DNA from: Candidatus Omnitrophota bacterium
GTDB taxonomy: Bacteria > Omnitrophota > Gorgyraeia > Gygaellales > Profunditerraquicolaceae
NCBI GenBank assembly: GCA_028716305.1
Contig: JAQUQA010000001.1
Location: forward strand, 1-34,342
Direction: 5' to 3'
Length of the DNA: 34,342 bases
The position numbers and the translations under genes were made by a program. This document shows, piece after piece, positions 2,802 through 28,147 of this stretch; positions within the stretch are counted from its first letter, which is position 1, and each line of letters starts with the position of its first letter. The notes under the pieces were generated by a model, which worked only from the letters and a program-made list of their open reading frames with translations, was not told the DNA's origin and did not search any database.

Positions 2802-3878
2802 CTATTTGCTGCCGGAGGCGTTCTCTAGGACATTCAGAAACTTGGGAACGTTTGCTCTTAAAGAATACCTTTCTTCGACCGTACGGCGGCCGTTTTCCCC
2901 GATCATCCTTCTTAGCTCCGGGTTTTTTGCCAGCAGGATGAGTTTTTCCGTCCATTCGCCTTCATCGTTCGCCAAATAGCCGTTTACTCCGTCATTGATA
3001 ATCTCTTTATTCATGCCGACCGCGGAACAGACACAGGGAATCCCTATGCTCATATACATTATCGCCTTAAACCCGCATTTACCTCGCGTCCATTCGTTGT
3101 CCGGCATTGGCATAATTCCGATATCGAAAGATGCCAGATCATCCATTTCTTCCTCCAGTAACCAGGGCTTAAAAACAATACTCCGGCCAAGGCTGCTTTC
3201 GTAGGACCCGCCGACAATCTTGATTAGGACATCGTTATTACTGCCGATGAGTTTTCGAAAAACGTTCTCCATTGGCTGAAGAAAGCCGGCAGTGGTCAAT
3301 GATCCGATCCAGCCGATGACAATGCTATTACTGCGGCTTTTTTGACGCGGCAGGAACTTTTCCGTGTCGATCGGCGTAGGGATGATATTGATATTCTTAT
3401 TATACAAGAGCGCGCAATCTCCCAGATAACGGTTTCCCGCTATTACCTGAGCACTGCCCTTGACCACCTCAGCAAACTTCTCCGGATACCTGAAATAACC
3501 GATAAAACTGTTTGAATCGCTTTTCGCCGGTAAGAATAAAGCGTCGTCGAAATCGAAAATAACCGGTTTTCCGGTCAAAATGACCATATTCTCAAAAAAA
3601 GCTCCGAAAATAGGATATGCCTCTCTGTGCACAAAAATGACATCGTAACCAAAAACACTAATTAGGTCTCCTAAGCGCAGAAGCGAACCGCGAAAAAAAT
3701 AGAAGAGTTTTTTTAAAAAATGCCCTTTTTTGTAAAGTATGGAGAATCCCCGCCTGCACCAGAAAGAAGAAACCCGGAACCTTACTCCTTTCTCTTTCAG
3801 GAACGGTAGATATTGTTCAACACGATACCTGTTGCTTGCCCCTTCCCTTGGATAGGGAACAAAAAATAAAACCTTCAT
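2802..3878 (-). CDS. GT-B glycosyltransferase (GT4/GT1-like)
   Basis: 358 aa. The MKVLFFVPYP N-terminus is typical of GT-B enzymes. The C-terminal region GFKAIMYMSIGIPCVCSAVGMNKEIINDGVNGYL resembles a nucleotide-sugar-binding EX7E-type region. There is an ATGA overlap with the upstream gene. Confidence 0.85.
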   Translation of the reverse strand: MKVLFFVPYPREGASNRYRVEQYLPFLKEKGVRFRVSSFWCRRGFSILYKKGHFLKKLFYFFRGSLLRLGDLISVFGYDVIFVHREAYPIFGAFFENMVILTGKPVIFDFDDALFLPAKSDSNSFIGYFRYPEKFAEVVKGSAQVIAGNRYLGDCALLYNKNINIIPTPIDTEKFLPRQKSRSNSIVIGWIGSLTTAGFLQPMENVFRKLIGSNNDVLIKIVGGSYESSLGRSIVFKPWLLEEEMDDLASFDIGIMPMPDNEWTRGKCGFKAIMYMSIGIPCVCSAVGMNKEIINDGVNGYLANDEGEWTEKLILLAKNPELRRMIGENGRRTVEERYSLRANVPKFLNVLENASGSK

Positions 3879-5116
3879 TGTTTTTTACCCGCTGCAGCCG
3901 GCAGGCATAAATCATCGAAAATCGCTTTATATAAAAGCGCCCCTTTCTCCAGGGAAAAGTTCCTAACCGCCAGCCGGCGGCACTCTTCTTTAAGCCGCGC
4001 ATTATTATTTTTCAATTCGAAAAGTTCACTCAAAGACTTTTCATAACAGTTACCCTTAAATTCGCTAATTACCGCTCCCACGGCGTTTTTCCGTAAAACC
4101 ATCTCCGTATCCCCAACACCAGAATTGATCACCACCGGTAATCCACAGGCAAGGTATTCCGCGAATTTTACCGGAGAACATGCCAGACGACTGAATGTCT
4201 GTTTATAGAAGATCAGGCCGGCATCGCAGAAAGAAAGAAATGCGGGAATCTGATTAAGCTCCGCTTCTCCCAGGGTAAAATCCCGCGAATGAATACCCAT
4301 TTTTTTAAGCGTAAGCTCGATATATGAGCGGTCGCCGGGACTTAAAATCACCAAATGGGCATCCGTTTTCATTTTCTTTGCCGTTTTAAAAAAATCCAGC
4401 ATTCCTTCAAGATTATACCATGTGCCCACCGAGCCGGTATAAATAAACAGGAATCTGTCGTCAAGTCCGCTTAAGAGCGGCGGCCTTACTTTAACCCCGG
4501 AGAAAGAAAAGAATTCCGTGTCCACGCAACATGGTATAACCCTAATCTTGGCCGCTTCTAGGGCGGGAAAATCTCCGGAATATAAAAGTATATCTTTTAT
4601 TCTTTCGGTAAGCACTACTACTGCGCTGGAGCCTTTCAGGAGACGAGCCTCGATTGTTTTCCCTAGAGTGAACAGCAAAGCCCCCTTCTTAATGATCCCG
4701 CCTTCGGCATATTCGTCTACCATCATTCCGCGCATATCGAAAATAAACTTTCTTCCAAGGCAAAAACGCAGTAAAAAAGCTATTACCGCCGGTACATAAC
4801 TTCTGGCATGCACGATATCAATTTTATCTTTTACGACGATGTACCCCGCATAAATAAACCCGCAGGCAATGTCCATAAAAGTCGAGATCACTGCCGGACG
4901 CTTATGATAGACCAGACGATACCAGCGGATATTGTGTGCTCTAAGCTCTGCGGATATCTTCCTATACCGCTGTTTATCCGCAAGGAATTTTTTCTTTTCA
5001 AAGGTTAAAATACTGAAAGATTTCCCCCTGTCCGAAAGTTTTTTCAAATAGGCTATCCCCTGCGAATATAACAGCGGCTCAAGGGCCCCATTATAGGAAA
5101 TGAACAGCCCCCTCAT
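3875..5116 (-). CDS. GT-B glycosyltransferase (GT4/GT1-like)
   Basis: 413 aa with a two-Rossmann layout. The C-terminal block is PVKFAEYLACGLPVVINSGVGDTEMV. There are ATGA overlaps at both ends. Confidence 0.85.
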   Translation of the reverse strand: MRGLFISYNGALEPLLYSQGIAYLKKLSDRGKSFSILTFEKKKFLADKQRYRKISAELRAHNIRWYRLVYHKRPAVISTFMDIACGFIYAGYIVVKDKIDIVHARSYVPAVIAFLLRFCLGRKFIFDMRGMMVDEYAEGGIIKKGALLFTLGKTIEARLLKGSSAVVVLTERIKDILLYSGDFPALEAAKIRVIPCCVDTEFFSFSGVKVRPPLLSGLDDRFLFIYTGSVGTWYNLEGMLDFFKTAKKMKTDAHLVILSPGDRSYIELTLKKMGIHSRDFTLGEAELNQIPAFLSFCDAGLIFYKQTFSRLACSPVKFAEYLACGLPVVINSGVGDTEMVLRKNAVGAVISEFKGNCYEKSLSELFELKNNNARLKEECRRLAVRNFSLEKGALLYKAIFDDLCLPAAAGKKQ

Positions 5117-6453
5117 AACACGCCTCCGCGAGAAATCTTTTTTTTGGAGTTACCGATATCCTGGCTCAGTCCGACCGCAGTAAAAATAAAAAATACAGGC
5201 CAAATCAACGCGCGGTGGCGGAAGAGCGTGCCTACATTTCCTTCCCCAAAAAAAGATAAGATCATCACCAGGATAAAGATCAAAATAAACAAGGATTCCT
5301 GCAGTCTGTAGCGTATGGAAAGCGCAACTCCTTTAAGCATGAAGAAAAACAAAACTATCCAAATAAGCATTTCCGCGGTCCCAAAAATATGTTTCAGCTT
5401 GGTAACCGCCCATGGAAAAGGAGCAAATAATATGTAAAGGAGGAACCCCGGGGCATTAAGGACGAAGGTTAACGGGGTAGAAATATCGGCGTCGGGTAAA
5501 AATGCCGTTTCCGCAGCCCAAAGCCTCACCTGATGCGCCTGATTCAATGCCTCGAAGACAGAACAGGAAGGAAAACCGATATAATTGTTGAATAGCCTGC
5601 TCACCGAATGCCATTTTAGAAATACCAGTAAAAAACTCAAACCAAGGATTATCAGGATGTATCTTTTTTTTCTACTGCAATAGTTTACCGCCAGCGATAT
5701 AAATCCGGCAAATATAACTACTACGGCGATCGAGCTGCGGATCTTATAAATCAGCGCAACGGACAATCCCAGCAGCACCCAATAAAAAATCAACCCGGGC
5801 GAATTCTTCAATTTATTTATCAGCCAAAAAATAAAGAACGCCAGAAAAATAGTGATCGGTTCTTTAAGGTTTTGCGTTGACCAAAGGATCAAAGAAGGCC
5901 AAAAGGCGCAAAGACCGGAGGCGATCAAAGCGCTGCGCCGGCCAAAGATATCCCGGGTAATAAAATAAATCAGGATTACCGTCAGGCTGCCGAAAACGCA
6001 ATTTAAAAAAAGTGTCATCAGGTAGTATTCCCCGATAAAATAGTAAAGAAATGCAACCAGATACGTGTAATTCAGGTCGCCTGCCCAAGGCATCCACCAC
6101 AGGCTGTTGGGCCCGGGGAGATAACCGGTTTCTTTCCACGCGGAAACAATACTGCTGGCATTCAGGGCATAACCGTAATCATCGGCCCCCAGAAAAAAGA
6201 TATTTCCCTTGCCGCGGTAAGCCAGCCAGGCAAGCAGCAGGCATAACAATATACGCAAGGCAAAGCCGGAATAAAATATCTTCAAAACGGCTGCCGGGCG
6301 GTCTTTTTCATACAGCTTCACCATGGCAACCCCGAAGAGAAACCCTAAAAACGCTATTAACCCGGGGACCAAAAGGGCCGGCGGGACAAAAAACAATACT
6401 CCTATAAGGACACCGGCAAAAACGATCTTCAACCTTTTATTTTCTTGCGGCAT
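5113..6453 (-). CDS. Polytopic membrane protein, PMT_2/ArnT-like GT-C glycosyltransferase candidate (an O-antigen-polymerase-like role is not excluded)
   Basis: 446 aa with more than 10 hydrophobic segments. An acidic GADDYGY motif sits in an early loop. The block LNCVFGSLTVILIYFITRDIFGRRSALIASGLCAFWPSLILWS resembles the PMT_2 core (R/N..LFG.L.V.L.Y...R..FG...A). Confidence 0.6.
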   Translation of the reverse strand: MPQENKRLKIVFAGVLIGVLFFVPPALLVPGLIAFLGFLFGVAMVKLYEKDRPAAVLKIFYSGFALRILLCLLLAWLAYRGKGNIFFLGADDYGYALNASSIVSAWKETGYLPGPNSLWWMPWAGDLNYTYLVAFLYYFIGEYYLMTLFLNCVFGSLTVILIYFITRDIFGRRSALIASGLCAFWPSLILWSTQNLKEPITIFLAFFIFWLINKLKNSPGLIFYWVLLGLSVALIYKIRSSIAVVVIFAGFISLAVNYCSRKKRYILIILGLSFLLVFLKWHSVSRLFNNYIGFPSCSVFEALNQAHQVRLWAAETAFLPDADISTPLTFVLNAPGFLLYILFAPFPWAVTKLKHIFGTAEMLIWIVLFFFMLKGVALSIRYRLQESLFILIFILVMILSFFGEGNVGTLFRHRALIWPVFFIFTAVGLSQDIGNSKKKISRGGVL

Positions 6454-7654
6454 AGCCTGACCTGATCCTTAAATAATAGTGGTAAACGGCATAAGCTGAC
6501 AAAATGATCAAAAAAGGCATGATCAGCGTCCTGTATCTGATACAGCTCCTGATCAACACGGAAACAAAGTTAAAATTAAAAATGATCAAAGCGAACAGTA
6601 AGGCGTAAGAAAACCGGCTTGCGGCCAGCAGGAATAACCCGATGGCCCCCAGGATAATCAGCGGTCCGTCGGTAAAAAGCATGACCAGGATATGCTTGAA
6701 ATTATAGGAATCCGGAAGGTCCGTGGTGTGAGGAAAGAACCTCCAGAAACGCAGGAATCTTCCGGCCAAGAGCTTACGATACTCCGCGGGATGGCTCTTA
6801 ATAAACTTCAACCCTTTGTTGTAATAATGCCTGTCGATCTGGACCTCTGACAATCCTGCGACTTCTTGGGAAGAAAGGCCTAAAACATAAAAATCCCCTC
6901 CCCCCTTGGTCAATACCTCCGGGTTGTGCGTGGCGTAAAAAGTCATTCCACCTTCCGTAGAGGCAAGGACTATTTTTTTATGCAGTGCGTAATTGCGGAT
7001 CACCCATGGGGCAATCAGCAGCCCGGCGGCAACAACCATGATCAATGCCTGACGCAGGGCCCGCCGTTTGTCCTTTTGAGTAAAGAATACCCAAAATGCC
7101 AGTAAGGGGATGAGCCCGTAGGCCATTGAACGTGTCATTGCCAATGCCCCCAGGAACACCCCGCTGAGCAAGGCATTAAAAAGGTACCCCCCTTTATTCC
7201 TTAAAAGAAAATAAACCGCCAGGAGCAACAAAAGGATCGCCAATGATTCAGGGGTAATTTTACCGTTCCAGTAGATAAAAGGCGGATAAAAAACAGCTGT
7301 CAGCATGGCCAATAAAGCGGGTTTTTTACCGAAGATCATCTTTGCGATCAGATAGATCAGGATGCAACCCAAACTGCTGAACAGGGAAAGCATGATTTCT
7401 ACCGGCAACAGGGCGGGTCCAAAAACCAGTATTGAACCGGCAAGAAAAAATGGAAAAACCCAGGGCCGCGCAGAAACAAAATCACTCACCCCCACCCACA
7501 TCGAGTAACCGTTCCCGGAAACGATGTTCTCGGCGATCTCCCAGCCCTCTTCATCCCAACAGCCTATTTCCTGGCTCCCCAGGGAATAAACATAAATGAC
7601 GCGGATGGCTAGGGCAACCAGAAAAAGCAAAAATACGATTTTATTATCTTTCAT
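6437..7654 (-). CDS. GT-C glycosyltransferase, family 39/83 (ArnT/PMT_2-like)
   Basis: The ORF is open to 7855, but that extension is Arg-rich and overlaps the upstream gene. The ATG at 7654 gives MKDNKIVFLLFLVALAIRVIY, a typical TM1. The first loop carries WDEEGWEIAENIVSGNGY (acidic DE motif). The PMT_2-like core is LFSSLGCILIYLIAKMIFGKKPALLAMLTAVFYPPFIYW. Confidence 0.75.
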   Translation of the reverse strand: MKDNKIVFLLFLVALAIRVIYVYSLGSQEIGCWDEEGWEIAENIVSGNGYSMWVGVSDFVSARPWVFPFFLAGSILVFGPALLPVEIMLSLFSSLGCILIYLIAKMIFGKKPALLAMLTAVFYPPFIYWNGKITPESLAILLLLLAVYFLLRNKGGYLFNALLSGVFLGALAMTRSMAYGLIPLLAFWVFFTQKDKRRALRQALIMVVAAGLLIAPWVIRNYALHKKIVLASTEGGMTFYATHNPEVLTKGGGDFYVLGLSSQEVAGLSEVQIDRHYYNKGLKFIKSHPAEYRKLLAGRFLRFWRFFPHTTDLPDSYNFKHILVMLFTDGPLIILGAIGLFLLAASRFSYALLFALIIFNFNFVSVLIRSCIRYRTLIMPFLIILSAYAVYHYYLRIRSGYAARK

Positions 7655-9203
7655 TTTTAATAAACCCGTAATTATGATCCGCTTTAAAAATATCATTAAA
7701 ACCGATGACCAGGGTTCCTTCCTGGGGCAGGCTGACCATCGCTTTTCTGATCCGCCGGTAATTCTCTTGCGCGATAACCTCAAAATTGACCTGTCCATCC
7801 GGAGTAAAATTAAGCGGCCCCTTTGCCACAAAGACCGGCTTGTCAATATGATCAACGGCCAGGTTAACCATGCTCACCAACCCCCTGTCTTCCAGGGCCT
7901 GGGCGCCAAAATAGGTGTTCAACAGGTTAAAATCGCGTTCGACAAAGGTAAACTTGATCTTGTCGGAAAAACTTTTGTTGTCAAAAACTATCCGTTGGGA
8001 CGCCAGAAGTTTGTCCTTATTGGCTTTCAGGCTGTCGTAAATCGCCCGGTTGATCCGGCAGGAAACCACCTGGGCCCAGGAATTCCCCTGAGAAACGATT
8101 AAAAATAAACCAGTAATAACCAACAACAACGGTTTCCAAAAACTGCCGAGTTTTGAAAACCACCAAATAGCCAGGATTACTATGCCAATTGAAGGCAGGA
8201 CCAAGTGCCTGCCTCCGATCCCCCCGCTCCTGCTCAAAAATAGCGGTGCAATAAAAAAAATAGCTGCCGCGATCGCAAATAAAATTTGTTTACCGCTGAT
8301 TTTAAGCCGGTTATCTTTAAGTAATTTTTTTAAAATATAGAGAGCTGCAATATCAAATATAAGAAATACAAAAAATAGCCACTTCGGGACCAAAACGAAA
8401 AAAAGATAAAAACCGTAAATCAGGCTTCTTAAAAGATACCGACCCGCATAATGATGTAACAATTCCACAAAAGCCAACGGCACGCCGGTTAAAGAAAAGG
8501 CATGCTGACTGACTGATTGATTAAGCACCGGCATAATATAAAAGCGGCAGGCCAAGTAGATGATTTCTGCGGCAAAAAACGGTACCAGGTACTTTATCAA
8601 GTTATTCCTTTTCAGGCAAAAACAATAGGCCATCAAAACAAACGGTTCAAAAAATCCTACCTCATACCAGAAAATCACCAGCAAATAGCTGAAAAATGAC
8701 AAATAGAGAAATGCTTTCTTCTTACTATTAATAAATTTAATAAAAAAACCGGTGCTAAAAATATAAATCCCTATTGCCGTATTCATATTGAGAAAGATCA
8801 GGCTGTGGTAAATTTCCAGGACATTCGGTAAAATGGAAAAAAGCAAAGCTCCGATAAAAGCGGTAAAAGAATCATTGAATAACTGAAAGACAAGATAATA
8901 AAAACCAAATGCAATAAAAAGGACGGAAAGGAAAAGAAGAATTAATGCCAATGTTGAATTTTCACCGATTAATTTACCTTGCAGCATAAGAAATATATAA
9001 TTAATTGGCCGGTCGCTTATCTTAAACATATTTTCGGGAATTTGGTTGAGTTCCAAATTTCGCGAAGTAAGTAAATAGACGTAATCATCGGGGGCAATAG
9101 AGGACCTTTCAAATGGTACAAAATGGGCAATAAATATAAAGATAACAAGTGTAATGATATACTGCTTATTAATCATACCTAAGTTTCCTGTCGAATTCTT
9201 CAT
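7644..9203 (-). CDS. Unassigned ~12-TM membrane protein with a soluble C-terminal domain; GT-C-like; paralogue A of 12748..14277
   Basis: 519 aa. The TM1 region YIITLVIFIFIAHFVPF is followed by a long loop containing APDDYVYL. About 12 hydrophobic segments precede a ~150-aa hydrophilic tail. It aligns along its full length with the 509-aa ORF at 12748..14277. There is an ATGA overlap with the upstream formyltransferase gene. Confidence 0.6.
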   Translation of the reverse strand: MKNSTGNLGMINKQYIITLVIFIFIAHFVPFERSSIAPDDYVYLLTSRNLELNQIPENMFKISDRPINYIFLMLQGKLIGENSTLALILLFLSVLFIAFGFYYLVFQLFNDSFTAFIGALLFSILPNVLEIYHSLIFLNMNTAIGIYIFSTGFFIKFINSKKKAFLYLSFFSYLLVIFWYEVGFFEPFVLMAYCFCLKRNNLIKYLVPFFAAEIIYLACRFYIMPVLNQSVSQHAFSLTGVPLAFVELLHHYAGRYLLRSLIYGFYLFFVLVPKWLFFVFLIFDIAALYILKKLLKDNRLKISGKQILFAIAAAIFFIAPLFLSRSGGIGGRHLVLPSIGIVILAIWWFSKLGSFWKPLLLVITGLFLIVSQGNSWAQVVSCRINRAIYDSLKANKDKLLASQRIVFDNKSFSDKIKFTFVERDFNLLNTYFGAQALEDRGLVSMVNLAVDHIDKPVFVAKGPLNFTPDGQVNFEVIAQENYRRIRKAMVSLPQEGTLVIGFNDIFKADHNYGFIKNER

Positions 9204-10069
9204 CCAAATCTCTTTCGCAATTTAGTAAAAATAAGCTTTTTTCCATCTGCAGACATGGCCGATAGAATCCGCACTATTCCTTCTCCACAGATAACTTCCG
9301 GCATATTATCTTTTAAATTCCAAATCTTTCCCGGGTGCCTTTCCACAAAATTGATATCATTTACCGCAATAACCTTATCTACTACGATTTCTTCCTGCTC
9401 ATACATTGTCTTTGCCCCGAGATATGGCCAGCTAAGCGCGTCGACGAACCGTGCTATTTTTTTAGCAGGCCAACTCCAATCAATCAAATAATCAAATTTA
9501 TCACGCCACAAACTATAAGAAGCAAAATTATTATTTTGTTTATAGTACTTCAATTTTCCCAGCTGAGACTTTCTGAGTATATCCCGGGCTATCTGCACGT
9601 AGCAAAAAGCTAACTGATCATAGGCATCTTTAATCCTTAAGGGGTATTTAACAGTTAAGGCGGTCTGGGCACATATCGGGCCAGCGTCCCTTTGTGTATG
9701 CGGTTTCAATGCGGTTACGCCGATCCTATTATTACCCAAGATCAAGGCGTTTACGGTTGGAGCAAAACCCCTGAATTTAGGAAGCAAAGAGTCGTGAAAA
9801 ACTATAATTCTATCGTCTATCTTATCAAGAAGATACTGCCAGCCAACGATGAAAATTAAATCCGCCTTTAGACAGCCCATATCCAGATCCCTCTTTTCAA
9901 AAAAATTATATTTTTCCTTTCTGCATAACTTCCTGATAAAATCATAAGAATTATCAAGCGTGCCTTCTGTTGCGTATGAAACGACACAAGCAACCTTGCA
10001 CTCTTTATGGATAATTTTCAGAAAATTATACCCTTTGTACCCAGCGATTAAAAAAGCTATTTTTTTCAT
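9200..10069 (-). CDS. Formyltransferase-family protein (Fmt/ArnA-N/sugar N-formyltransferase-like)
   Basis: 289 aa. It carries the hallmark HDSLLPKFRGFAP (family motif H-x-SLLP-x-x-RG), a downstream TALKPHTQRDAGPI with the conserved Asp, and an Fmt-C-like C-terminal domain. The Asn normally 2 residues before the His is Val here (IIVFH). Confidence 0.8.
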   Translation of the reverse strand: MKKIAFLIAGYKGYNFLKIIHKECKVACVVSYATEGTLDNSYDFIRKLCRKEKYNFFEKRDLDMGCLKADLIFIVGWQYLLDKIDDRIIVFHDSLLPKFRGFAPTVNALILGNNRIGVTALKPHTQRDAGPICAQTALTVKYPLRIKDAYDQLAFCYVQIARDILRKSQLGKLKYYKQNNNFASYSLWRDKFDYLIDWSWPAKKIARFVDALSWPYLGAKTMYEQEEIVVDKVIAVNDINFVERHPGKIWNLKDNMPEVICGEGIVRILSAMSADGKKLIFTKLRKRFG

Positions 10070-10986
10070 AAGCCGATTTTCTCCGATATTATGTACAGGG
10101 GTCTCTTTTTTATTTCATAAAAGGCCTTCCCCAGATAGAGTCCGATTATCCCAAGAACAGTGATGATTATTCCTCCTATAAAATATAAAGAAACGATTAA
10201 GCTTGCCCATCCCATAATTGGGATCCCAAAGAAAATTTTCCGGTAGATTACGTATATCCCGACCAAAAAAGAAAGAAAAGAAATTATAAAACCAAAGGTA
10301 ATAGATAGCCTGAGCGGTTTATCGGAGTAGGCTACAATAGTATCTATGGCTAATTTACACAATGAACGGAAATTATATGAGCTCTTTCCGCTAAAACGCT
10401 GTTTAAATTCTACATCGATATAGGCCGTGGGATACCCCATCCAGTCAACCAATCCTCCAAAAAACCTCAAATTTTCTCTCATTAAGCGAAAGTTTTCAAC
10501 GACATTCCTCGACATAATCCTAAAATTCCTGATTCTGTAATCATAATGAATATCGGCCAGATAATTCAGGAATCTGTAAAACAAAATAGCTGAGCACCTT
10601 TTCAGAAAAAAATCATTTCGTCTGACCCTTCTGGCTATAACCATCTCAAAGCCATCTTTAGCTTTTTCGTATAACCTAGTTATATCCTCCGGCTTATCCT
10701 GGAGGTCGCAATCCATGACAACCACCCAGTCTCCTTTGGCGTAATCTAAACCGGCAGTAATCCCGTAATGCTGCCCAAAATTTCTACTAAACTTTATTCC
10801 TTTAAAATGCGGATCACTTTTGACTATTTGCTCAATAAGCTTCCAGGAATCATCCTTCCCCCCATCTTCAATTAATATAACTTCATAGGAATTAATTCCT
10901 GTAAGAGATTCTTTTAGGCGCGAGCAAAGTTCATTGAGACACTTCTCTGCATTGTAAACCGGGACGACCACAGAAATAACTGGCAT
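10066..10986 (-). CDS. GT2 polyprenyl-phosphate glycosyltransferase (ArnC/GtrB-like) with a C-terminal TM hairpin
   Basis: 306 aa. Motifs: VISVVVPVYNAEK, EVILIEDGGKDDS, SRNFGQHYGITAG and VVMDCDLQDKPEDI. Two C-terminal hydrophobic helices are present (LRLSITFGFIISFLSFLVGIYVIY and LIVSLYFIGGIIITVLGIIGLYL). The architecture is as I recall for E. coli ArnC. Confidence 0.85.
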   Translation of the reverse strand: MPVISVVVPVYNAEKCLNELCSRLKESLTGINSYEVILIEDGGKDDSWKLIEQIVKSDPHFKGIKFSRNFGQHYGITAGLDYAKGDWVVVMDCDLQDKPEDITRLYEKAKDGFEMVIARRVRRNDFFLKRCSAILFYRFLNYLADIHYDYRIRNFRIMSRNVVENFRLMRENLRFFGGLVDWMGYPTAYIDVEFKQRFSGKSSYNFRSLCKLAIDTIVAYSDKPLRLSITFGFIISFLSFLVGIYVIYRKIFFGIPIMGWASLIVSLYFIGGIIITVLGIIGLYLGKAFYEIKKRPLYIISEKIGL

Positions 10987-10997
10987 ATACGCTCCTT

Positions 10998-12131
10998 TTA
11001 TTGCTCAAGGGTCATTAAAGCTAAATCGGCCATTTTCCGGATTTCTTTTTTTCTTAAACCAATCCACAATGGTAACCTAATTATCCTTTTGCTTATATCA
11101 AGGGTATTGCTTAATTTTCCAACACTGCGGGAGAACTTCAAACCCGCCTTTGAATTATGCAGTGGTACGTAATGAAAAATAGCCTGGTATCCCTTATCTC
11201 GCAGATGTTTCAGCACTAAAGCGCGCTTCCTGTGTGTCGCAACCAGAATATAATACATATGGGCGTTGTGCCTGCAGTTTCTGGGAATAACCGGACGCCG
11301 CAGAATTCTGTCAGCCTCTGGCTCTTTAAACATGGCGTGATACTGTTCCCAAATATCCAAGCGCGAACTCCTGATGAGGTACTCAGAAGTCATTTGGGCC
11401 CAAAGGAAAGCTGCATTAATCTCGCTGGGTAAAAATGACGAACCTATGTCAACCCAGGAGTACTTATTGACCTCCCCCCTGAAAAACTTGCTCCGGTTGG
11501 TGCCTTTTTCCCTGATAATTTCTGCCCGTTCCATATAATTTTTATCATTAATCAACAGCGCTCCGCCTTCTCCGCAATGGATATTTTTTGTCTCGTGAAA
11601 GCTTATTATGGCAAAATGGCCAAAGCTGCCCAGGGGCTTGTTATTATACATGCTCGAAAGGGCATGGGCCGCATCTTCAATGACCAAAAGATTATACTCC
11701 TTCGCAATCTTCATTATGGTTTCCATTTCACAGCCTATTCCTGCGTAGTGTACGGGCACTATGGCTTTAGTCTTTTTGGTTATGGCCTTCTTTAACTGTC
11801 TTTCATCCAAATTCAAAGTATCTGGCCTAATATCAATAAAAACAGGAATAGCCCCCCTTAATACAAAAGCATTTGCCGTAGAAGTGAAAGTAAAAGAAGG
11901 CATAATCACTTCATCACCGGGACGAATATCTGCCAGGATTGCCGCCATCTCCAAGGCCGCCGTTCCAGAATGGGTAAGCAAGGCCCCCTGGCAACCAATT
12001 TTATTCACTAGCCATTGATTACACTTTTTTGTAAAAAACCCGTCACCGGAAAGTTGGCCGAATTTTACCGCTTGACTGATATATTTAGTCTCCTTGCCAG
12101 TAATATACGGCCGATTAAAAGGTATTTTCAT
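10998..12131 (-). CDS. wecE: DegT/DnrJ/EryC1 PLP aminotransferase, WecE-like (dTDP-4-keto-6-deoxyhexose 4-aminotransferase type)
   Basis: 377 aa. Long stretches match my memory of E. coli WecE: IPFNRPY..G.E..Y, GDG.FT..C..WL, GDEVIMPSFTF.STANAFVLRGA, VHYAG..CEM..IM, SFHETKN (PLP Lys), AEIIREKGTNRS.FFRG.V.KY.W.DIGSS and NAHMYYI. Confidence 0.85.
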   Translation of the reverse strand: MKIPFNRPYITGKETKYISQAVKFGQLSGDGFFTKKCNQWLVNKIGCQGALLTHSGTAALEMAAILADIRPGDEVIMPSFTFTSTANAFVLRGAIPVFIDIRPDTLNLDERQLKKAITKKTKAIVPVHYAGIGCEMETIMKIAKEYNLLVIEDAAHALSSMYNNKPLGSFGHFAIISFHETKNIHCGEGGALLINDKNYMERAEIIREKGTNRSKFFRGEVNKYSWVDIGSSFLPSEINAAFLWAQMTSEYLIRSSRLDIWEQYHAMFKEPEADRILRRPVIPRNCRHNAHMYYILVATHRKRALVLKHLRDKGYQAIFHYVPLHNSKAGLKFSRSVGKLSNTLDISKRIIRLPLWIGLRKKEIRKMADLALMTLEQ

Positions 12132-12154
12132 CTTATGCCCTCATTTCCGTTCAT

Positions 12155-12751
12155 TTACTTAGTACATTCAATAATCAGATGATTATAGGGTATATTAAGC
12201 ATGTCATCGCGCAATTCCGTCTTAACGCCAGAGAAAACCTTTGATGCAAGATTTACGTATTCTTCCCGGTTCCTGACAAATTTACCGCGGTCCTTTGAAA
12301 GAATAAAACGTATTAACCGGTGCTGATTTTTAGTGTAACATCCGTCAATAGTTAACATCCTCCCGCCTTTTTTTAAGCCCGCAAAGGCAAGTTTGAATAA
12401 ATCTACCGCTTCCCGATCATTTAGATGATGCATTACCCCATTGGCCATAATTAAGTCGAATAAGGGCAAGGTTTCAATTATATTCATGTCAATATTCGAA
12501 CAAAAGAAATTACCGACTTTTGAATAATTTTCCTTAGCTGATTTAATATACTGTGCGTTTATATCAAAACCCGTATAAATAACTCCCGTTAAGAATTTCA
12601 AAATGTCAGCTGGCCCGCAGCCAACATCCAATATCTTATCGCCTTCCCGGGGCCTTAAGTAATTAGAAACAAATAACGCATGTGCCTTTCCGCCCCCGAC
12701 AATATTATAAAATAACCTGTAAAACAGCGGGGAATCCAATAAATACCTCAT
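12155..12751 (-). CDS. Class I SAM-dependent methyltransferase
   Basis: 198 aa. Motif I is ILDVGCGPADIL. The blocks FDLIMANGVMHHL and LKKGGRMLTIDG are also present. There is an ATGA overlap with the upstream membrane-protein gene. Confidence 0.85.
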   Translation of the reverse strand: MRYLLDSPLFYRLFYNIVGGGKAHALFVSNYLRPREGDKILDVGCGPADILKFLTGVIYTGFDINAQYIKSAKENYSKVGNFFCSNIDMNIIETLPLFDLIMANGVMHHLNDREAVDLFKLAFAGLKKGGRMLTIDGCYTKNQHRLIRFILSKDRGKFVRNREEYVNLASKVFSGVKTELRDDMLNIPYNHLIIECTK

Positions 12752-14277
12752 TTTGTTATTCCTTTGAGCAAACGACTTTCGGAAATTAATTTGTAGTTAA
12801 TTATAAAAACGTTATTAATAGGCTGAGTCATACTTATATTATTAATTTTCCGATATTCCACTATTTGCGGTATGGCAAATGCTAACGTATCAGCGAATTT
12901 TTTAGGAGATTCGCTTGCCAGATATACTTCAATATTTTTATTTTCAGTGGCTAAGAAAACCATTCCCTTGATACCTTCGTAATGAAACATATTGGCACCG
13001 TAATATGTCTCAAAGAGATTGGATTGGTTCCCGAATAAACTATGTGGAATGTTTTTCGCTAAACTATTAACATCTACAATGACAACTTCTTTATTTTTTA
13101 TAGTCTCTCTATTTTCTTTGATTACCCCGAAGATTGCGGCGTTTATTCTGCAAGACACTACTTGAGCCCAGGAATTTCCCTGGGAAACTAAAAGACATAG
13201 AAAAATAATACATATAGATGGAACCAGCCATTTGTTTCGCATCTTTTCAAAAATATTAACCAGTATGATTGATACACCGATACTTGGCATGATTAGATAT
13301 CTGCTGGCTATACCAAAGTTTTTATTCATAAGAAACGGCAAAATAAAAATAATGAATAGAATTAAAGCATAAAGGTTGCTCTTATTTCTTTTTACTGCCC
13401 CCGGGTAACTTACCATCATACGTATAATAGTAAACAAGACAAAAACGTCAATAAAAATGATGGGGATCAACCATGAGGGGGATATTGTAAAAAATTTATA
13501 AATGCCATATATCATGCTTCTAGCTAAATACCTGCCGAAATAATGATTGAATACATCAATCAATGGCCTGATGGGCAATATCGCTAAATCTAGGTTATAG
13601 CCCGACATCCTCAATTGACTGGAGCCAAAGGAATTAGTGAAACGGTAAAACGTATATAAAATAACAGGGATCAAGTAATAAAAAGAATACCTGGTTTTAT
13701 TTCTCTCATAAAATATGCAATAAAAGAACGCGGCAACTGGCAGAAAAAAACCGGCTTCATACCAAAATATACCGATTGTATACCCAAATATAGCTGAAAA
13801 TAAAAATAATTTACGCTGGTTCTTGAGAAAATAAATAAACGCTATCAAGGATAAGATATAAATACTTACTACGATATTAATATTTAGAAAAATCAAAGTG
13901 TGGTAAATTTCCAATTTATTTGGCAGAAGGATGTAAAATAACGAGGCGAAAAAAGCGCTCATTTCATTTCCAAGTAGCAATAAAAATAACCAATATATGC
14001 AAATGAGTAGCAAAGTACTCGAAATCACTAACGAGATGAATCCAAGAGCGACATTTTCACCGATCAATTTTCCCTGAAGCATAAAAAAAGAATATATGAT
14101 TGGGCGGTCAGGAACCTTAAACATTATTTTAGGTATTTGCTCAATCTCGACATTTTTTGACTGAGCCAAATAAAAATAATCATCGGAAGAAAAAGAGGCT
14201 CTCTCTAAAGGCAGAAAATGAGCGACCATATTCAGCAGAATCAGCAGGCTGACAAAGAACAGCTGTTTTTTATTCAT
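12748..14277 (-). CDS. Unassigned ~12-TM membrane protein with a soluble C-terminal domain; GT-C-like; paralogue B of 7644..9203
   Basis: 509 aa with the same layout as 7644..9203. TM1 is followed by a loop with SSDDYFYL. Shared blocks include FFMLQGKLIGEN, LEIYHTLIFLNIN, FWYEAGFF, HYFGRYLARSMIYG and VSQGNSWAQVVSCRIN. There is an ATGA overlap with the upstream GT2. Confidence 0.6.
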   Translation of the reverse strand: MNKKQLFFVSLLILLNMVAHFLPLERASFSSDDYFYLAQSKNVEIEQIPKIMFKVPDRPIIYSFFMLQGKLIGENVALGFISLVISSTLLLICIYWLFLLLLGNEMSAFFASLFYILLPNKLEIYHTLIFLNINIVVSIYILSLIAFIYFLKNQRKLFLFSAIFGYTIGIFWYEAGFFLPVAAFFYCIFYERNKTRYSFYYLIPVILYTFYRFTNSFGSSQLRMSGYNLDLAILPIRPLIDVFNHYFGRYLARSMIYGIYKFFTISPSWLIPIIFIDVFVLFTIIRMMVSYPGAVKRNKSNLYALILFIIFILPFLMNKNFGIASRYLIMPSIGVSIILVNIFEKMRNKWLVPSICIIFLCLLVSQGNSWAQVVSCRINAAIFGVIKENRETIKNKEVVIVDVNSLAKNIPHSLFGNQSNLFETYYGANMFHYEGIKGMVFLATENKNIEVYLASESPKKFADTLAFAIPQIVEYRKINNISMTQPINNVFIINYKLISESRLLKGITK

Positions 14278-14960
14278 AGCCTTAACCTCAAAAGGAAAAG
14301 TTGCTTAAAATTGGCCCAGATTGTCGCCGGATTATTTACTTTTGACCGACCGCAGACCCTGGGCTTCATCTCAATCGGGATACTGGTGATCTTATATCCG
14401 CGCTTTTTGGTCTTGATAATCAGCTCCATCAACACTGTCCACGGCCGGCCACCCGGGGAAAGCAGCTCGATTTTATCGAGCAATCGGCGCCTGAACATCA
14501 ACACTCCCTGAAATTTAGGCATCGGCCCAAAAAGCAGAAAGAATAAGGCCTTCTCCACCCGCGAAAGGGCCCGGGAAAGCAGAGAATCGTTCCTTTTCGG
14601 CAGGTAACCCAGGACCATATCGTGCTCTTGGGCTAAAGGCAGGAACTTATCAAGCAGATCCGCGGAAAACTGCCCGTCCGCCGAATAAAAAGTAAGCAGG
14701 TCCTTGGTCGCCCTGGCAAAGGCGGTACGGTAACCCGTTCCCAGTCCGCAATTATTGCCGTGGTGTATGACCGAAACCCGCTCCAGATCGTGACTCAGGC
14801 GATCCGCGATTTTTCCGGTTTTATCCGTGCTCCCGTCATCAATAACCACCAGCTCAAAATCCCCGCCCTGTCTGGAAAGGGCCTTCCAGGCCTGCCTCGT
14901 CACCTGCTCCAGGGTGGCCTCTTCATTAAAAGCTAAAATAAAAAGACTGATACTTTGCAT
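14274..14960 (-). CDS. GT2 glycosyltransferase, short soluble DPM1/polyprenyl-phosphate-hexose-synthase-like
   Basis: 228 aa. Motifs: ISLFILAFNEEATL, ELVVIDDGSTDKTGKIA, NCGLGTGYRTAF and FYSADGQF (DxD-like region). There is no C-terminal TM segment. Confidence 0.8.
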   Translation of the reverse strand: MQSISLFILAFNEEATLEQVTRQAWKALSRQGGDFELVVIDDGSTDKTGKIADRLSHDLERVSVIHHGNNCGLGTGYRTAFARATKDLLTFYSADGQFSADLLDKFLPLAQEHDMVLGYLPKRNDSLLSRALSRVEKALFFLLFGPMPKFQGVLMFRRRLLDKIELLSPGGRPWTVLMELIIKTKKRGYKITSIPIEMKPRVCGRSKVNNPATIWANFKQLFLLRLRL

Positions 14961-14965: not shown

Positions 14966-15880
14966 CTATGGGTACAGATGGTAAAAATTAAAGGTTTCTC
15001 TTACCCGGAAACCCGCTTTTTCGTAAAATCTTTTTAACCCCGGGTGCTCGGACTCAAAATTAAGGATGATCCCCTTATTTTCAGATTGTAATCTTTTATG
15101 CGCCTCTTTGATCAGGCTCATTCCAATACCGTGCTTGCGCTCACCCTTTTTAACCACGATCATATCAACAAAACCATATCTTTCTCCAAGGAAATCCCTT
15201 TGGTCATAAGCGATAAAGCCGGCGATCCTCCCCTTCCGGCAGGCAACCAGGCAGGTATCCACCCGGCCGGATAGATCATTCATCGCCCATTGATAGTAAA
15301 GCCGCTTGACCTTATTTTTATCCAGGCGAGATTCTCTTAAAAGCCGGTTCTTATATCCGCTTGCCATGATCGCACAGATATCCTTAAATTCATTTTTTTT
15401 AGGCTCACGGATGAGCATGCCCTTGGGTTCGAAAGATATTTTTTCTTTAAAAGAAAGCCGCGCGTTAAGGGTCCGCGAGATCAAACGGGCCTTATTTTTT
15501 TTTAGCGCAAAGATAAGCGGCCGGCCGCCCACCGGGTCCCTGAAGAAGATTATCTTTACTCCGGCCGATCTGCAACGCCTGAGTAGGTCTTTGATCAGGT
15601 TATCGTAAAGCGAGGAACGCTTTAGGGTATTTTTTCGGGTCGCGATAAAAAGCATCCTGGCGGCCTTTACCCCCAGGAGCCGGCTGTCCCAACCAAGCAG
15701 CTGATATGCCAAAACCCCGGATAAGGGCTTTTTGCCTTGTCCGGGAAAGATAACGTATTCTTGCCCGCTTAAGGGAGATACCTTTCCCCCAAAGTAATTC
15801 TTTAAGGCAAGAGCTTCCTGGGATTCCCGCAAGAATACCCGCACGGCGCTTTCAGTTAATTTTCCTTTTGCTTCAGGCAT
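14966..15880 (-). CDS. Two-domain GNAT N-acetyltransferase, WecD-like (amino-sugar N-acyltransferase type)
   Basis: The C-terminal GNAT motif A is VVKKGERKHGIGMSLIKEA, followed by FYEKAGFRV. An upstream LLGWDSRLLG segment resembles the L.WDS.FFG start of WecD-type enzymes. The ORF is open to 15937. I prefer the ATG at 15880, which gives an ATGCCTGA 8-nt overlap with the SDR stop. Confidence 0.7.
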   Translation of the reverse strand: MPEAKGKLTESAVRVFLRESQEALALKNYFGGKVSPLSGQEYVIFPGQGKKPLSGVLAYQLLGWDSRLLGVKAARMLFIATRKNTLKRSSLYDNLIKDLLRRCRSAGVKIIFFRDPVGGRPLIFALKKNKARLISRTLNARLSFKEKISFEPKGMLIREPKKNEFKDICAIMASGYKNRLLRESRLDKNKVKRLYYQWAMNDLSGRVDTCLVACRKGRIAGFIAYDQRDFLGERYGFVDMIVVKKGERKHGIGMSLIKEAHKRLQSENKGIILNFESEHPGLKRFYEKAGFRVRETFNFYHLYP

Positions 15881-16853
15881 TCGCGGATTCCTTGTTTTTC
15901 CTGAACCATTCGATGGTCTTTTCAATGCCTTCTTCAATCCCTATCTTCGCCTTGAAATCAAGTATCTTCTCGGCTTTAGAGACATCGGGAAGCCTCCTGG
16001 ATATATCTTCGTAGCCGCTGCCGTAAATCTCCTCCGGCTGGATATGCACGATCTCGGATTTCGAACCGGTAACTTTTTTAATGATCTTTGCCAGTTCCAG
16101 AATAGTAATTTCCTTGGAATCTCCGATATTAAAAATCTGTCCTTCCGCTTCTTTTAAGACCGCGCATTTAACCAATCCCTTGATTACGTCTTCGACATAG
16201 GTAAAACACCTGGTCTGTTTGCCGTCACCGATAACCGTGATCTGCTTATTGGCCAATGCCTGGACAATAAAACGCGACATTACCCTGCCGCTGCCCTCGA
16301 TATCAAGCTTTGGCCCATAGGCGTTAAAAAAACGAACGATACTCATGGGAAGCCCCTGGCGGTGATACCCGATCAGCATATATTCCCCCAGGGCCTTGGT
16401 CGAGGAATAAACCCAGCGGTCTACGCTAGTCGGCCCCAGTAATCTGTCGTCGTCTTCTTTAAAGGGCACATTCGGGCTTTTACCATAGATCTCGGAAGTC
16501 GAGGTAAAAATGACCTTTTTCTTGTATTTAAAGGCCAGGGAAGCCACATTTTTTGTTCCGTCGACATTTATGCTGATGACCTTGAGAATGTCCCCGATAA
16601 TGTTCTCTACACCTACTGCCGCGGCCAAGTGATACACCAGGTCGCACTTTTTTATGAGAATCTCCAGCGCCGCCTCTTCCAGGATCGAACTTTCAAAAAA
16701 ATTAAAGTTTTTATGACTTTCGAATTCCCCGATATTATTCTTGTTGCCCCTGAGCATAATATCAAGCCCATAGACCTCATTTCCTTCTTTAAGCAGCTTT
16801 TCCGCAAGATGCGCGCCGATAAAACCCGCGACCCCCGTGATCAATATCCTCAT
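15873..16853 (-). CDS. Extended SDR, NAD-dependent epimerase/dehydratase family; ArnA C-terminal (UDP-uronate 4-oxidase/decarboxylase)-like
   Basis: 326 aa. MRILITGVAGFIGAHL carries the GxxGxxG motif. FTSTSEIYG, RWVYSSTKALGEY (YxxxK), GDGKQTRCFTYVEDV and GYEDISRRLPD parallel ArnA segments PSTSEVYG, RWIYSVSKQL, GGKQKRCFT and GYQDVEHRKP as I remember them. Confidence 0.8.
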   Translation of the reverse strand: MRILITGVAGFIGAHLAEKLLKEGNEVYGLDIMLRGNKNNIGEFESHKNFNFFESSILEEAALEILIKKCDLVYHLAAAVGVENIIGDILKVISINVDGTKNVASLAFKYKKKVIFTSTSEIYGKSPNVPFKEDDDRLLGPTSVDRWVYSSTKALGEYMLIGYHRQGLPMSIVRFFNAYGPKLDIEGSGRVMSRFIVQALANKQITVIGDGKQTRCFTYVEDVIKGLVKCAVLKEAEGQIFNIGDSKEITILELAKIIKKVTGSKSEIVHIQPEEIYGSGYEDISRRLPDVSKAEKILDFKAKIGIEEGIEKTIEWFRKNKESANA

Positions 16854-26979: not shown

Positions 26980-26981
26980 TT

Positions 26982-27431
26982 TTACTCCAAAGGGTATCTC
27001 AACTGCCACTTGCCTGATTCTTTTTTCCAAATCTCCGGGTTGCGGTGCTTATCCACGATTTCATTGAATTCCTTTTCGTTAAGATCCAGATACTCCAGTA
27101 CCTCTTTCAGGAATAGACTAGGGTATTCATGGTCATATTTTCTTGCCAGCTTAAGCCCTTCTTCCCGGGTCAACTGCCGGTTCTGGATCATCCGGCTGGC
27201 ATCTCTTACCGCCCTGCCAAAACCGAATTTTATGTATTGCAGATAATAATAGGCGTTATCAACCTTATCATCCAGGCTGTCAAAATCGGTAAAGGTGCCT
27301 TCGGTCCGACCTGCCGGACAGGTGTGAAAATCAAATTTATCCTTGATATAAAGGTAATTCTCATAACTGCTCCATTTAAAAAAATAACTGAAATACATGG
27401 CCTTTACCCCAGCCCGGCGGATCTTTTCCAT
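26982..27431 (-). CDS. C-terminal fragment of an N-acetyl-sugar amidotransferase (WbuX/WbpG/PseA family); part of a frame-interrupted gene
   Basis: The 149-aa ORF contains FDSLDDK, YLQYIKFGFGRAVRDASRMIQNRQLTREEG and FNEIVDKHRNPEIW, typical of the family C-terminus. Its reading frame stays open upstream as far as 27575 and so overlaps the end of the N-terminal fragment. Confidence 0.8.
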   Translation of the reverse strand: MEKIRRAGVKAMYFSYFFKWSSYENYLYIKDKFDFHTCPAGRTEGTFTDFDSLDDKVDNAYYYLQYIKFGFGRAVRDASRMIQNRQLTREEGLKLARKYDHEYPSLFLKEVLEYLDLNEKEFNEIVDKHRNPEIWKKESGKWQLRYPLE

Positions 27432-27517: not shown

Positions 27518-28147
27518 CTACTTCGGTAAAATCACGGATTTTTTTGCCTCCTGGCTTAAGACCTTTCCGCCGTATTCACTCTCTCCGTGCTCGGCGTAAA
27601 AAACCAGCGGAATATTAAAATCCACCGCGGTCTTTACCGGAATGACGTTGATCCCGGCATCCCAGGCAACTTTTTGATTTCCCCGCTCGATAAAGAACCG
27701 GCGCGCGAGCCTGCGATGCACCTTCTGGTTTGGCCGGAAAAAGATGTGGTCAAACCCCAGCCGGATCAAAGCCTCGCGGTTATGATTACCCACTTCATTG
27801 GGGATCTGCGGAGAAAATGTCACCAAAAGCGGGTTCATCCCAAATTCGAATTTCAGCTTGTAGGCTACCGCGCTGCTGTCTTTTCCCCCGCTCCAGGGAA
27901 CAAGACAATCCCAATACCCGTTTTTGGAACGAAAAGGTTCGATCAGGCGCTGAAACTCTTCTTTTCTGGCCTGCCAGTCGAGATTAGCCCATTTTTCCTC
28001 GGCGTTCCTACAGGCATTACAGACACCGGATTCATCAAAGGTGATCCTGGGCCGGGAATTCGGCATCAGACACTTTTTGCAGTACGCAATTCTTCTTGCC
28101 GCTTCTGAAGAGTGTTTTATTTCGGCATTCCCCCTGGAAATATCCAT
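27518..28147 (-). CDS. N-terminal fragment of an N-acetyl-sugar amidotransferase (WbuX/WbpG/PseA family); part of a frame-interrupted gene
   Basis: 209 aa. The Zn ribbon is CKKCLMPNSRPRITFDESGVCNACRN. The PP-loop is VPWSGGKDSSAVAYKL. YAEHGESEYGG is also present. It ends 6 codons after an A7 run. Confidence 0.8.
   Translation of the reverse strand: MDISRGNAEIKHSSEAARRIAYCKKCLMPNSRPRITFDESGVCNACRNAEEKWANLDWQARKEEFQRLIEPFRSKNGYWDCLVPWSGGKDSSAVAYKLKFEFGMNPLLVTFSPQIPNEVGNHNREALIRLGFDHIFFRPNQKVHRRLARRFFIERGNQKVAWDAGINVIPVKTAVDFNIPLVFYAEHGESEYGGKVLSQEAKKSVILPK
27539..27545 (-). repeat. A7 homopolymer on the coding strand (T7 on the + strand) at the frame break of the amidotransferase gene
   Basis: The + strand reads ggaTTTTTTTgcc. 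The coding strand reads GCA AAA AAA TCC. One additional A would join the two fragments into a 388-codon ORF. Confidence 0.9.

Follow-up and report, generated by a model that had tools for sequence, protein, structure and literature searches.

We analyzed the whole of a 34,342-nucleotide (nt) contig from a metagenome-assembled genome of a Candidatus Omnitrophota bacterium (assembly GCA_028716305.1, contig JAQUQA010000001.1; hereafter, the window), in which every long open reading frame (ORF) lies on the minus strand. Two of these ORFs encode related, multi-spanning membrane proteins, A (519 amino acids, aa) and B (509 aa), which are predicted to be glycosyltransferases of the GT-C fold class (Table 1). 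According to the ORF coordinates, B overlaps by 4 nt both the gene for a 228-aa family 2 glycosyltransferase (GT2_228) and a methyltransferase gene, and A is joined in the same way to a formyltransferase gene, which in turn overlaps by 4 nt the gene for a 306-aa GT2 (GT2_306); the ATGA letters themselves were read directly only at the starts of A and B. The coupling that a preliminary description of this DNA had proposed for both series is borne out by these coordinates. That description did not mention PMT2_C and PMT2_D, a pair of PMT_2-type GT-C genes directly after A, which bring the number of GT-C genes in tandem to four.

A and B align end to end by BLASTP, with 185 identities over 502 residues (37%), 56% positives, 8 gaps, and an E-value of 1e-102, in agreement with the third or more that had been estimated by eye. 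Motifs common to the two in the alignments include ER.S..DDY, MLQGKLIGEN, LEIYH, FWYE.GFF, and HY.GRY. A block of 16 residues, VSQGNSWAQVVSCRIN, is the same in both proteins, exactly where it was first reported; 9 of its 16 codons differ, through 10 nucleotide changes that are all synonymous. By the Nei-Gojobori method these are 10 changes over 11.3 synonymous sites (saturated) against none over 36.7 non-synonymous sites, and the probability that 10 random changes in the block would all be synonymous is about 5e-7. The exact B protein recurs in four further assemblies, where the genes after it agree with those of the window in order, product length, and Pfam family, and it is also found with its first downstream gene on a fifth, short contig; one of these is 99.97% identical to the window across 17.5 kb. 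An assembly artifact or a recent duplication was rejected on the synonymous divergence of the block and the presence of the same locus in other assemblies.

The pair is thus old, as had been claimed, but the picture of a simple duplication needs revision. In a rough neighbor-joining tree of 80 full-length family members, A pairs with P0002, the protein in the A slot of a very close relative, and B with P0020, and the two pairs fall in different subclades, a feature absent from the preliminary description. About two dozen proteins of other genomes (38–65% identity) are nearer to A than B is. Judged from these sequences, A and B are better read as two anciently diverged lineages than as a simple local duplication.

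In the NCBI annotation A is PHD09_00035 and B is PHD09_00060, both 'hypothetical protein'. PHD09_00035 is called as a 461-aa product that starts 58 codons downstream, leaving out window positions 9030..9203 and with them the first transmembrane helix (TM1) and residues P30, E32, R33, and D39 (residue numbers throughout are those of A). The 519-aa ORF is supported by an N-terminus that is conserved across 30 homologs.

A family outside the curated models

Neither A nor B matches any Pfam or NCBIfam model (for NCBIfam at E ≤0.01, ArnT included). A search with the Pfam family PMT_2 (PF13231; gathering threshold 26.1 bits) returned neither protein at E ≤0.01, nor A at E ≤1, and both fall outside its curated membership. 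Four of the 30 relatives (P0006, P0011, P0012, and P0013) exceed the gathering threshold, at 26.4–32.2 bits, and align collinearly, residues ~55–206 on model positions 4–153, which places the family at the fringe of the ArnT/PMT_2 clan. The label 'unassigned family' therefore remains apt for A and B themselves, but the family is not wholly isolated. Comparison of the family profile by hhalign with the two neighboring PMT_2 proteins and a 10-sequence PMT2_D alignment gave probabilities of at most 0.6%; one such alignment set PDDY over 'GADDYGY' of PMT2_D, without statistical support.

A word-indexed search of 5.8 billion proteins returned only 30 relatives, at 31–65% identity. With an exhaustive profile search, the representative clusters number 164 at E ≤1e-30, 384 at E ≤1e-10, and 3,624 at E ≤1e-3, and the family is therefore larger than at first sight. 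Its distant members match over the membrane domain only; when 10 distant relatives were run against Pfam, nine had no match and one had a weak match to Mannosyl_trans4. As labeled in the sequence records, the hosts are mostly Omnitrophota, with three metagenome-assembled genomes (MAGs) labeled 'uncultured Planctomycetia/Planctomycetales', one Pelagibacteraceae MAG, and a distant match in Verrucomicrobiota. Our literature searches turned up no account of the family, nor of comparable glycan loci in Omnitrophota.

Several genomes hold more than one family member (L007 13328..14854; L016 79..744 and 3125..4597; L017 5144..6853). The second copy in L007 is very distant, at 21% identity to A, and in the MAG CAYMPL01 at least three copies are spread over two contigs.

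The 30-sequence family alignment contains 26 invariant columns. P30, E32, R33, and D39 lie just after TM1, followed by R65 and P66; D40 is common to most of the 30 sequences and falls under the 90% conservation threshold. Toward the middle of the protein the invariant residues include Y173, Y180, and G183 (in the FWYE.GFF motif), G254, G264, and R332, and in the C-terminal tail they include D408, S411, Y431, G433, and A434. Six more (G373, N374, Q378, V379, R383, and I384) belong to the 16-residue block, which had been singled out as a candidate functional element from two sequences and proves to be conserved family-wide.

Fold and membrane topology

An AlphaFold2 model of A, with the family alignment as input (predicted local distance difference test score, pLDDT, 89.2; predicted template modeling score, pTM, 0.90), was compared with the PDB by Foldseek. 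GT-C glycosyltransferases fill all of the first 25 places, with a probability of ≥0.90 for 23 matches and most values near 1.0. The best is ArnT (5F15; E-value 3.6e-4, template modeling score [TM-score] 0.41), and the other top matches include PglB, AftA, yeast and human STT3, DPY19, EmbB, AglB, AftD, ALG6, and Pmt4. The GT-C layout recognized in the preliminary description is thereby upheld, GT-C structures being the only ones returned with confidence.

Two other classes of membrane protein were considered and rejected. Transporters (major facilitator superfamily, BetP, pyrophosphatase) appear at Foldseek probabilities below 0.1 and TM-scores of ~0.1, and the 50 matches listed include no structure of Wzy, WaaL, or SEDS. 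The sequence of A has no WWDYG-type (WWD.G) motif of the kind found in STT3 and PglB.

Model helices and hydropathy together give A 11 transmembrane helices and a cytoplasmic N-terminus, so the multi-spanning architecture first described holds, within the 7–13 helices of the GT-C(A) class, but its figure of about 12 helices does not. TM1 (residues 14–30) leads into external loop 1 (31–82), which contains short helices at 38–48, 52–62, and 66–79 and holds the ER..PDDY site. Ten more transmembrane helices follow, with short K/R-rich loops at 159–164, 198–204, 292–306, and 351–357 and with the conserved LE.YH, FWYE.GFF, GRY..R, and GGRH motifs in external loops. A single long helix (353–394) forms TM11 and exits the membrane via the invariant block, and an α/β domain of ~125 aa (395–519) ends the protein. 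Across the 30 sequences, K+R per residue is 0.31 in the predicted cytoplasmic loops vs 0.089 in the external ones, a distribution that, by the positive-inside rule, puts both the DDY loop and the C-terminal domain outside the cytoplasm. This is the orientation that had been anticipated for the loop, and a cytoplasmic DDY was not seen.

The ER..DDY site in loop 1 (E32, R33, D39, D40) is a candidate catalytic acidic site. Modeled alone, the C-terminal domain reaches a pLDDT of 87.5, and Foldseek found no neighbor for it in the PDB (best E-value 0.13, probability 0.15); this external domain is specific to the family.

A low-GC cassette that ends inside gene A

A 6.2-kb segment of the window that includes both B and the membrane domain of A is replaced by a different, 2.7-kb segment (L001 6420..~9096) in L001, the 96%-identical contig of the very close relative to which P0002 belongs; the preliminary description had not mentioned this. 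The flank from 20724 to 14306 has 96% DNA identity to L001, and from ~8100 downward identity is 88–97%. The flanking proteins are correspondingly close: 99.7% for a short-chain dehydrogenase/reductase (SDR), 95.6% for GT2_228, and 94% for PMT2_C. Between the flanks, the protein in the B slot of L001 is only 36.5% identical to B, and the four-gene donor cassette of the window is not in L001 at all. P0002 is 50.6% identical to A in the membrane domain and 95.3% in the C-terminal domain. At the DNA level, the membrane domain of A has 48–69% identity to L001 per 100 nt, and identity jumps from ~50–60% to 100% at window ~8091–8096, in the first codons of the invariant block. GC content is 37.4% for 8091..14306, 47.1% for the rest of the contig, and 45.5% for the L001 counterpart segment, and it changes at the same junction within gene A, from 35.5% in the membrane part to 47.2% in the C-domain part. 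B, the four donor-pathway genes, and the membrane domain of A are thus one horizontally acquired low-GC cassette that replaced a resident pair.

That the membrane domain of A travels together with the GtrB-like GT2, the formyltransferase, and the aminotransferase supports a functional link among them. The comparison also shows that the adjacency of A to these three genes is strain-specific. The exchange looks like a serotype-style diversification of a surface glycan.

Elsewhere in the alignment with L001, a second drop in identity lies inside PMT2_D (~5800..5900), from >92% to 44–76% per 100 nt, and downstream of it, to position 1, the GT4s, a methyltransferase, and AsnB have 55–72% protein identity to L001, so that the mosaic structure of the locus is not confined to one place. 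In near-identical contigs from other samples, the methyltransferase of the cassette is split in L021 (2241..2837; 92 + 97 aa), and an FkbM-type methyltransferase is split in L019 (2575..3529; 110 + 204 aa). These may be strain-level inactivations or read errors.

Carrier-loading-type glycosyltransferases beside the family

GT2_306 and GT2_228, each encoded in an overlapping gene chain with A or B, are of the type that makes polyprenyl-phosphate sugars such as those on undecaprenyl phosphate (Und-P). GT2_306 matches GtrB (5ekp) over its full length at E 6e-66 in the PDB, and ArnC at 1e-40. Its NCBIfam matches, to PgfS (1.4e-69, full length, 234.7 vs an equivalog cutoff of 500) and ArnC (5e-47), are both below cutoff, and it ends in two C-terminal transmembrane helices (224–292). 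GT2_228 has no transmembrane segment; its best PDB sequence match, over the whole catalytic domain, is the Pyrococcus furiosus dolichol-phosphate-mannose synthase (5mlz, E 6e-10), followed by ArnC, and its weak NCBIfam matches to PpgS and a dolichyl-phosphate hexose transferase are far below cutoffs.

Neighborhoods were compared for loci L001–L018, of which L012, L016, and L017 are truncated or uninformative. A GT2 of the 228-, 306-, or 288-type lies directly upstream of the family member in L001, L002/L003, L006/L013, L009, L010, L011, L014, and L015, and a methyltransferase gene stands between the two in L004 and L005. Homologs of GT2_228 itself are directly upstream in L001, L002, L009, L010, L011, and L014 and ~250 nt upstream in L008; L018 has a GT2 ~1 kb upstream, and in L007 a WecE-like gene adjoins the family member, with a GtrB-like GT2 four genes upstream. 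A PMT2_D-like protein (434–469 aa, no soluble domain) is encoded directly after the family member in L002, L004, L008, L009, L010, L012, and L014, and DegT aminotransferases, acyltransferases, and an ArnD-family polysaccharide deacetylase recur nearby. The association with carrier-loading GT2s (DPM1-, GtrB-, or ArnC-type), put forward from the window alone, thus extends to most related loci, where the GT2 is directly upstream or one methyltransferase away. The neighborhoods of the family fit the pattern, already described for three-component extracytoplasmic glycosylation, of a polyprenyl-phosphate-sugar synthase with a GT-C enzyme (PMC11127046).

Other genes of the locus

Features of the window are collected in Table 1. 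PMT2_C overlaps the end of A by 14 nt. A mechanically called ORF for it (6437..7855, TTG start, 472 aa) overlaps A by ~200 nt; the true start is probably the ATG at 7657 (MKDNKIVF...), which matches a 405-aa gene call in L001. Sequence searches of the PDB with the PMT2_C and PMT2_D family found nothing. The SDR upstream of B aligns with ArnA residues 317–649 at 3e-59.

Table 1. Positions of the genes and features discussed in the text
Feature	Position	Strand	Basis
PMT2_D, PMT_2-type GT-C, 446 aa, F..D.D motif conserved in loop 1	5113..6453	-	PMT_2 32 bits
PMT2_C, PMT_2-type GT-C, 406 aa from ATG 7657	6437..7657	-	PMT_2 49.6 bits
Paralog A, predicted GT-C glycosyltransferase	7644..9203	-	ORF, AlphaFold2, Foldseek
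C-terminal extracytoplasmic domain of A, residues 372–519, conserved flank	7644..8090	-	95.3% to P0002, GC 47.2%
Invariant block of A, outer end of TM11 into C-domain helix	8049..8096	-	Identical block in B; also L001 recombination junction
Transmembrane domain of A, residues 1–371, variable cassette	8091..9203	-	Identity to L001, GC 35.5%
Low-GC variable cassette: B, methyltransferase, WecE, GT2_306, formyltransferase, transmembrane domain of A	8091..14306	.	Identity, GC
ER..(5)..DDY of A (E32–Y41)	9081..9110	-	Alignment, model, positive-inside rule
Sugar N-formyltransferase, ArnA N-domain/Fmt-like	9200..10069	-	Pfam Formyl_trans_N/C; NCBIfam ArnA N-domain 3.8e-23
GT2_306, 306-aa GtrB/ArnC/PgfS-type GT2, Und-P sugar synthase type	10066..10986	-	PDB, NCBIfam
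WecE-type dTDP-4-amino-4,6-dideoxyhexose aminotransferase	10998..12131	-	NF008687 573 bits (cutoff 375); TIGR02379 560 (cutoff 435)
S-adenosylmethionine (SAM)-dependent methyltransferase of cassette	12155..12751	-	Pfam
Paralog B, same family, different subclade, GC 33.1%	12748..14277	-	BLASTP, neighbor-joining tree
Invariant block of B	13141..13188	-	Codon comparison
ER..(5)..DDY of B (E25–Y34)	14176..14205	-	Alignments
GT2_228, 228-aa soluble DPM1-like GT2, candidate polyprenyl-phosphate sugar synthase	14274..14960	-	Pfam GT2
GNAT N-acetyltransferase, weakly WecD-like, conserved flank upstream of GT2_228	14966..15937	-	Pfam, NCBIfam; 93% identical in L001
ArnA C-domain-like/UDP-4-keto-pentose synthase-like SDR	15873..16853	-	PRK11908 1e-60, 205.6 bits (cutoff 294)

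Glycan genes form a large cluster across the remainder of the contig, among them GT4s, GT2_288, NeuB, a PseG-like gene, an ArnB/PseC-like aminotransferase, a Ugd-like dehydrogenase, WbuX with HisH/HisF, and two AsnB-like amidotransferases. The upstream part, from 22234 to 34342, carries the nonulosonic-acid-type genes (NeuB, PseG-like, ArnB/PseC-like), the Ugd-like dehydrogenase, a radical-SAM/SPASM protein, HisH/HisF, and the two AsnB-like amidotransferases. Such a gene content suggests that the surface glycan is complex and heavily tailored; this part showed no Wzx, Wzy, ABC exporter, or initiating phosphoglycosyltransferase. The WbuX-type N-acetyl sugar amidotransferase (TIGR03573) is split on the minus strand into 26982..27431 and 27518..28147, which match model positions 2–184 and 222–344 and adjoin the HisH- and HisF-like genes; a frameshift, a pseudogene, or an error in sequencing may account for the split.

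Proposed function and alternatives

With the fold match to GT-C enzymes, the external acidic loop, and the conserved company of carrier-loading GT2s, A and B probably belong to an unnamed family of membrane glycosyltransferases of the GT-C(A) fold and act in an ArnT- or Gtr-like manner on a surface glycan or lipid. By analogy with such systems, we infer catalysis, the donor, the acceptor, and the pairing of each GT2 with a GT-C protein along the following lines. An N-acylated amino-sugar nucleotide would be made in the cytoplasm, and the adjacent GT2 (GT2_228 beside B, GT2_306 in the cassette with A) would load its sugar on Und-P. The lipid-linked sugar would be flipped by a protein encoded outside the window, and A or B would then move it to a surface glycan or lipid acceptor at the outer face of the inner membrane. 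For A, the donor suggested by the WecE-type aminotransferase together with the formyltransferase is probably an N-formyl-4-amino-4,6-dideoxyhexose; for B, the ArnA-C-like SDR and the GNAT protein suggest an N-acetylated amino sugar. The external C-terminal domain possibly aids in recognizing an acceptor or a partner.

The position of the cassette boundary within gene A allows a further proposal, which we make tentatively and with more doubt than conviction: the boundary may record a natural domain swap, in which donor specificity and acceptor or partner specificity are separable modules. The membrane domain, with the catalytic loop, would bind the lipid-linked donor and move with the genes that make it; the external C-terminal domain would stay with the resident locus and its downstream GT-C partners; and the QGN..Q..RI block would serve as a universal joint for the recombination of alleles.

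Several observations weigh against the assignment of A and B as glycosyltransferases of this pathway. Neither protein reaches a curated model, every named copy of the family in the sources is a 'hypothetical protein', the family profile found among PDB sequences only a chance 22-residue transmembrane match (E 0.36), and hhalign against the PMT2_D family detected no relation (probability 0.1). TM-scores to solved GT-C structures are mostly 0.33–0.42, with a lowest value of 0.24, and the likeness is therefore one of fold and not a close one. No flippase of the GtrA, SMR/ArnEF, MATE, or Wzx types is among the window ORFs of ≥80 aa, and no flippase-type Pfam family is in the gene tables of L001–L007; the contig is only 34 kb long, so a flippase may lie elsewhere. 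The RmlA and RmlB steps toward a dTDP-sugar donor are not in the window either. The A-like gene of L001 has no GtrB-like GT2 or formyltransferase adjoining it. Lastly, the pairing of GT2 with GT-C is ambiguous, because there are four GT-C genes and only two GT2s of the carrier-loading type. Of the 'two parallel modules' in the preliminary description, the coupling to GT2s stands, but a one-to-one scheme is not established, because PMT2_C and PMT2_D lie downstream and no flippase was found.

The likeness to ArnT raises the alternative that the acceptor is lipid A or the lipopolysaccharide core, with A and B as functional ArnT analogs in an Arn-like aminosugar pathway. Besides ArnT being the best structural match, the neighbors of A and B resemble the C-terminal half of ArnA, its N-terminal formyltransferase half, ArnC, and ArnB, and an ArnD-family deacetylase lies near relatives of the family. 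We consider this acceptor unlikely, given that A and B are without any NCBIfam match at E ≤0.01, the ArnT family included, and that the WecE-type enzyme, which scores above cutoff, points to a dTDP-6-deoxyhexose and not to UDP-4-amino-4-deoxy-L-arabinose (UDP-Ara4N). A large, strain-variable cluster with GT4s, NeuB, a PseG-like gene, and WbuX is, moreover, typical of O-antigen or capsule-type glycans, and strain-level exchange of a cassette better suits antigenic variation of a side chain than charge modification of lipid A. The proteins could also be organized otherwise, A and B forming a heteromeric GT-C pair like EmbA-EmbB or Pmt1-Pmt2, or the four tandem GT-Cs building a short polymer from Und-P-monosaccharides. 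The four GT-C genes in a row with only two GT2s of the Und-P-sugar type would suit this idea, as would the tandem B-slot and A-slot genes of the window and L001, replaced together (B whole, A in its membrane domain), and the PMT2_D-like partner directly after the family member in seven other loci. A single family member stands beside the GT2 in most other genomes, however, and A and B both retain all invariant residues, neither looking degenerate, which makes such an arrangement distinctly unlikely.

Donors built on undecaprenyl diphosphate (Und-PP), and a role as something other than an enzyme, are disfavored by the fold search and the gene context. That A and B are oligosaccharyltransferases, ligases, or polymerases of the PglB, PglL, WaaL, or Wzy kind, drawing on Und-PP-oligosaccharides, is very improbable: PglB and STT3 are indeed among the best fold matches and the window has no recognized Wzy, WaaL, or flippase, but A lacks the WWDYG-type motif, the Foldseek matches listed hold no WaaL, Wzy, or SEDS, and the conserved partner is a DPM1- or GtrB-type GT2, a maker of monophosphate-linked monosaccharides. 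A transporter, flippase, or structural membrane protein would account for the want of a curated family match and of an identified flippase for the system; against it stand the poor scores of transporter structures, the invariant acidic loop-1 motif and external-loop residues, which are typical of GT-C enzymes, and the four relatives above the PMT_2 cutoff, and we hold this reading to be extremely improbable.

Read as glycosyltransferases, A and B bear on the annotation of surface-glycan loci. GT-C enzymes are hard to recognize by sequence, new GT-C families are still being founded, with GT136 dating from 2024 (PMC11127046), and an ArnT/Gtr-like name for the present family, which occurs mainly in uncultured Omnitrophota and Planctomycetota-labeled MAGs, would improve annotation in these lineages. 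Having its boundary inside a gene makes the cassette a natural experiment and a useful lead on GT-C modularity; the domain-swap reading, if true, would supply both a design rule for GT-C engineering and a mechanism of glycan diversification in Omnitrophota.

Comparison with known systems

With ArnT (CAZy GT83; PMT_2; Cupriavidus metallidurans 5F15/5EZM), A and B share an N-in orientation, the multi-spanning GT-C(A) layout, an acidic first external loop, and a periplasmic C-terminal domain, as well as gene neighbors like both halves of ArnA and ArnC, and like ArnD in relatives. They differ in matching neither PMT_2 nor the ArnT model, in their motifs (ER..DDY, FWYE.GFF, and QGN.W.QV..RIN), in a C-terminal domain without a PDB neighbor, and in an aminotransferase that points to a 6-deoxyhexose and not to Ara4N. 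ArnT has 13 transmembrane helices, and 11 are predicted for A.

The three-component Gtr system (the flippase GtrA, the Und-P-Glc synthase GtrB, and a Gtr* GT-C, with relatives such as the GT136 system) resembles the locus in that a GtrB homolog is translationally coupled in a run ending at a GT-C gene, in its strain-variable, serotype-like cassette, and in the logic of a lipid-linked monosaccharide. In the window, unlike in Gtr systems, no GtrA, SMR, or MATE flippase was found, the cassette carries donor-tailoring genes (aminotransferase, formyltransferase, methyltransferase), two family paralogs and two PMT_2 GT-Cs stand in tandem, and the cassette boundary falls within a GT-C gene, where its membrane part meets its soluble part.

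Among the synthases, those of the PpgS/Rv3779 and DPM1 type are like GT2_228, which is short, free of transmembrane segments, and translationally coupled to a GT-C gene, with the difference that its curated scores are all far below cutoffs. The streptococcal PgfS/PgfM1/PgfM2 and GacI/GacL systems share with the window the affinity of GT2_306, whose best NCBIfam match is PgfS, and the presence of two GT-C paralogs per Und-P-sugar synthase; here GT2_306 is below the equivalog cutoff, the host is a diderm of the Planctomycetes-Verrucomicrobia-Chlamydiae (PVC) group, and the GT-C partners are not detectably homologous in our searches. An unannotated GT-C beside a GtrB-like GT2 would not surprise a specialist and extends a known theme: the enzyme class is familiar and so is the type of pathway, and A and B add to the class a branch that has no name yet rather than founding a new kind of system.

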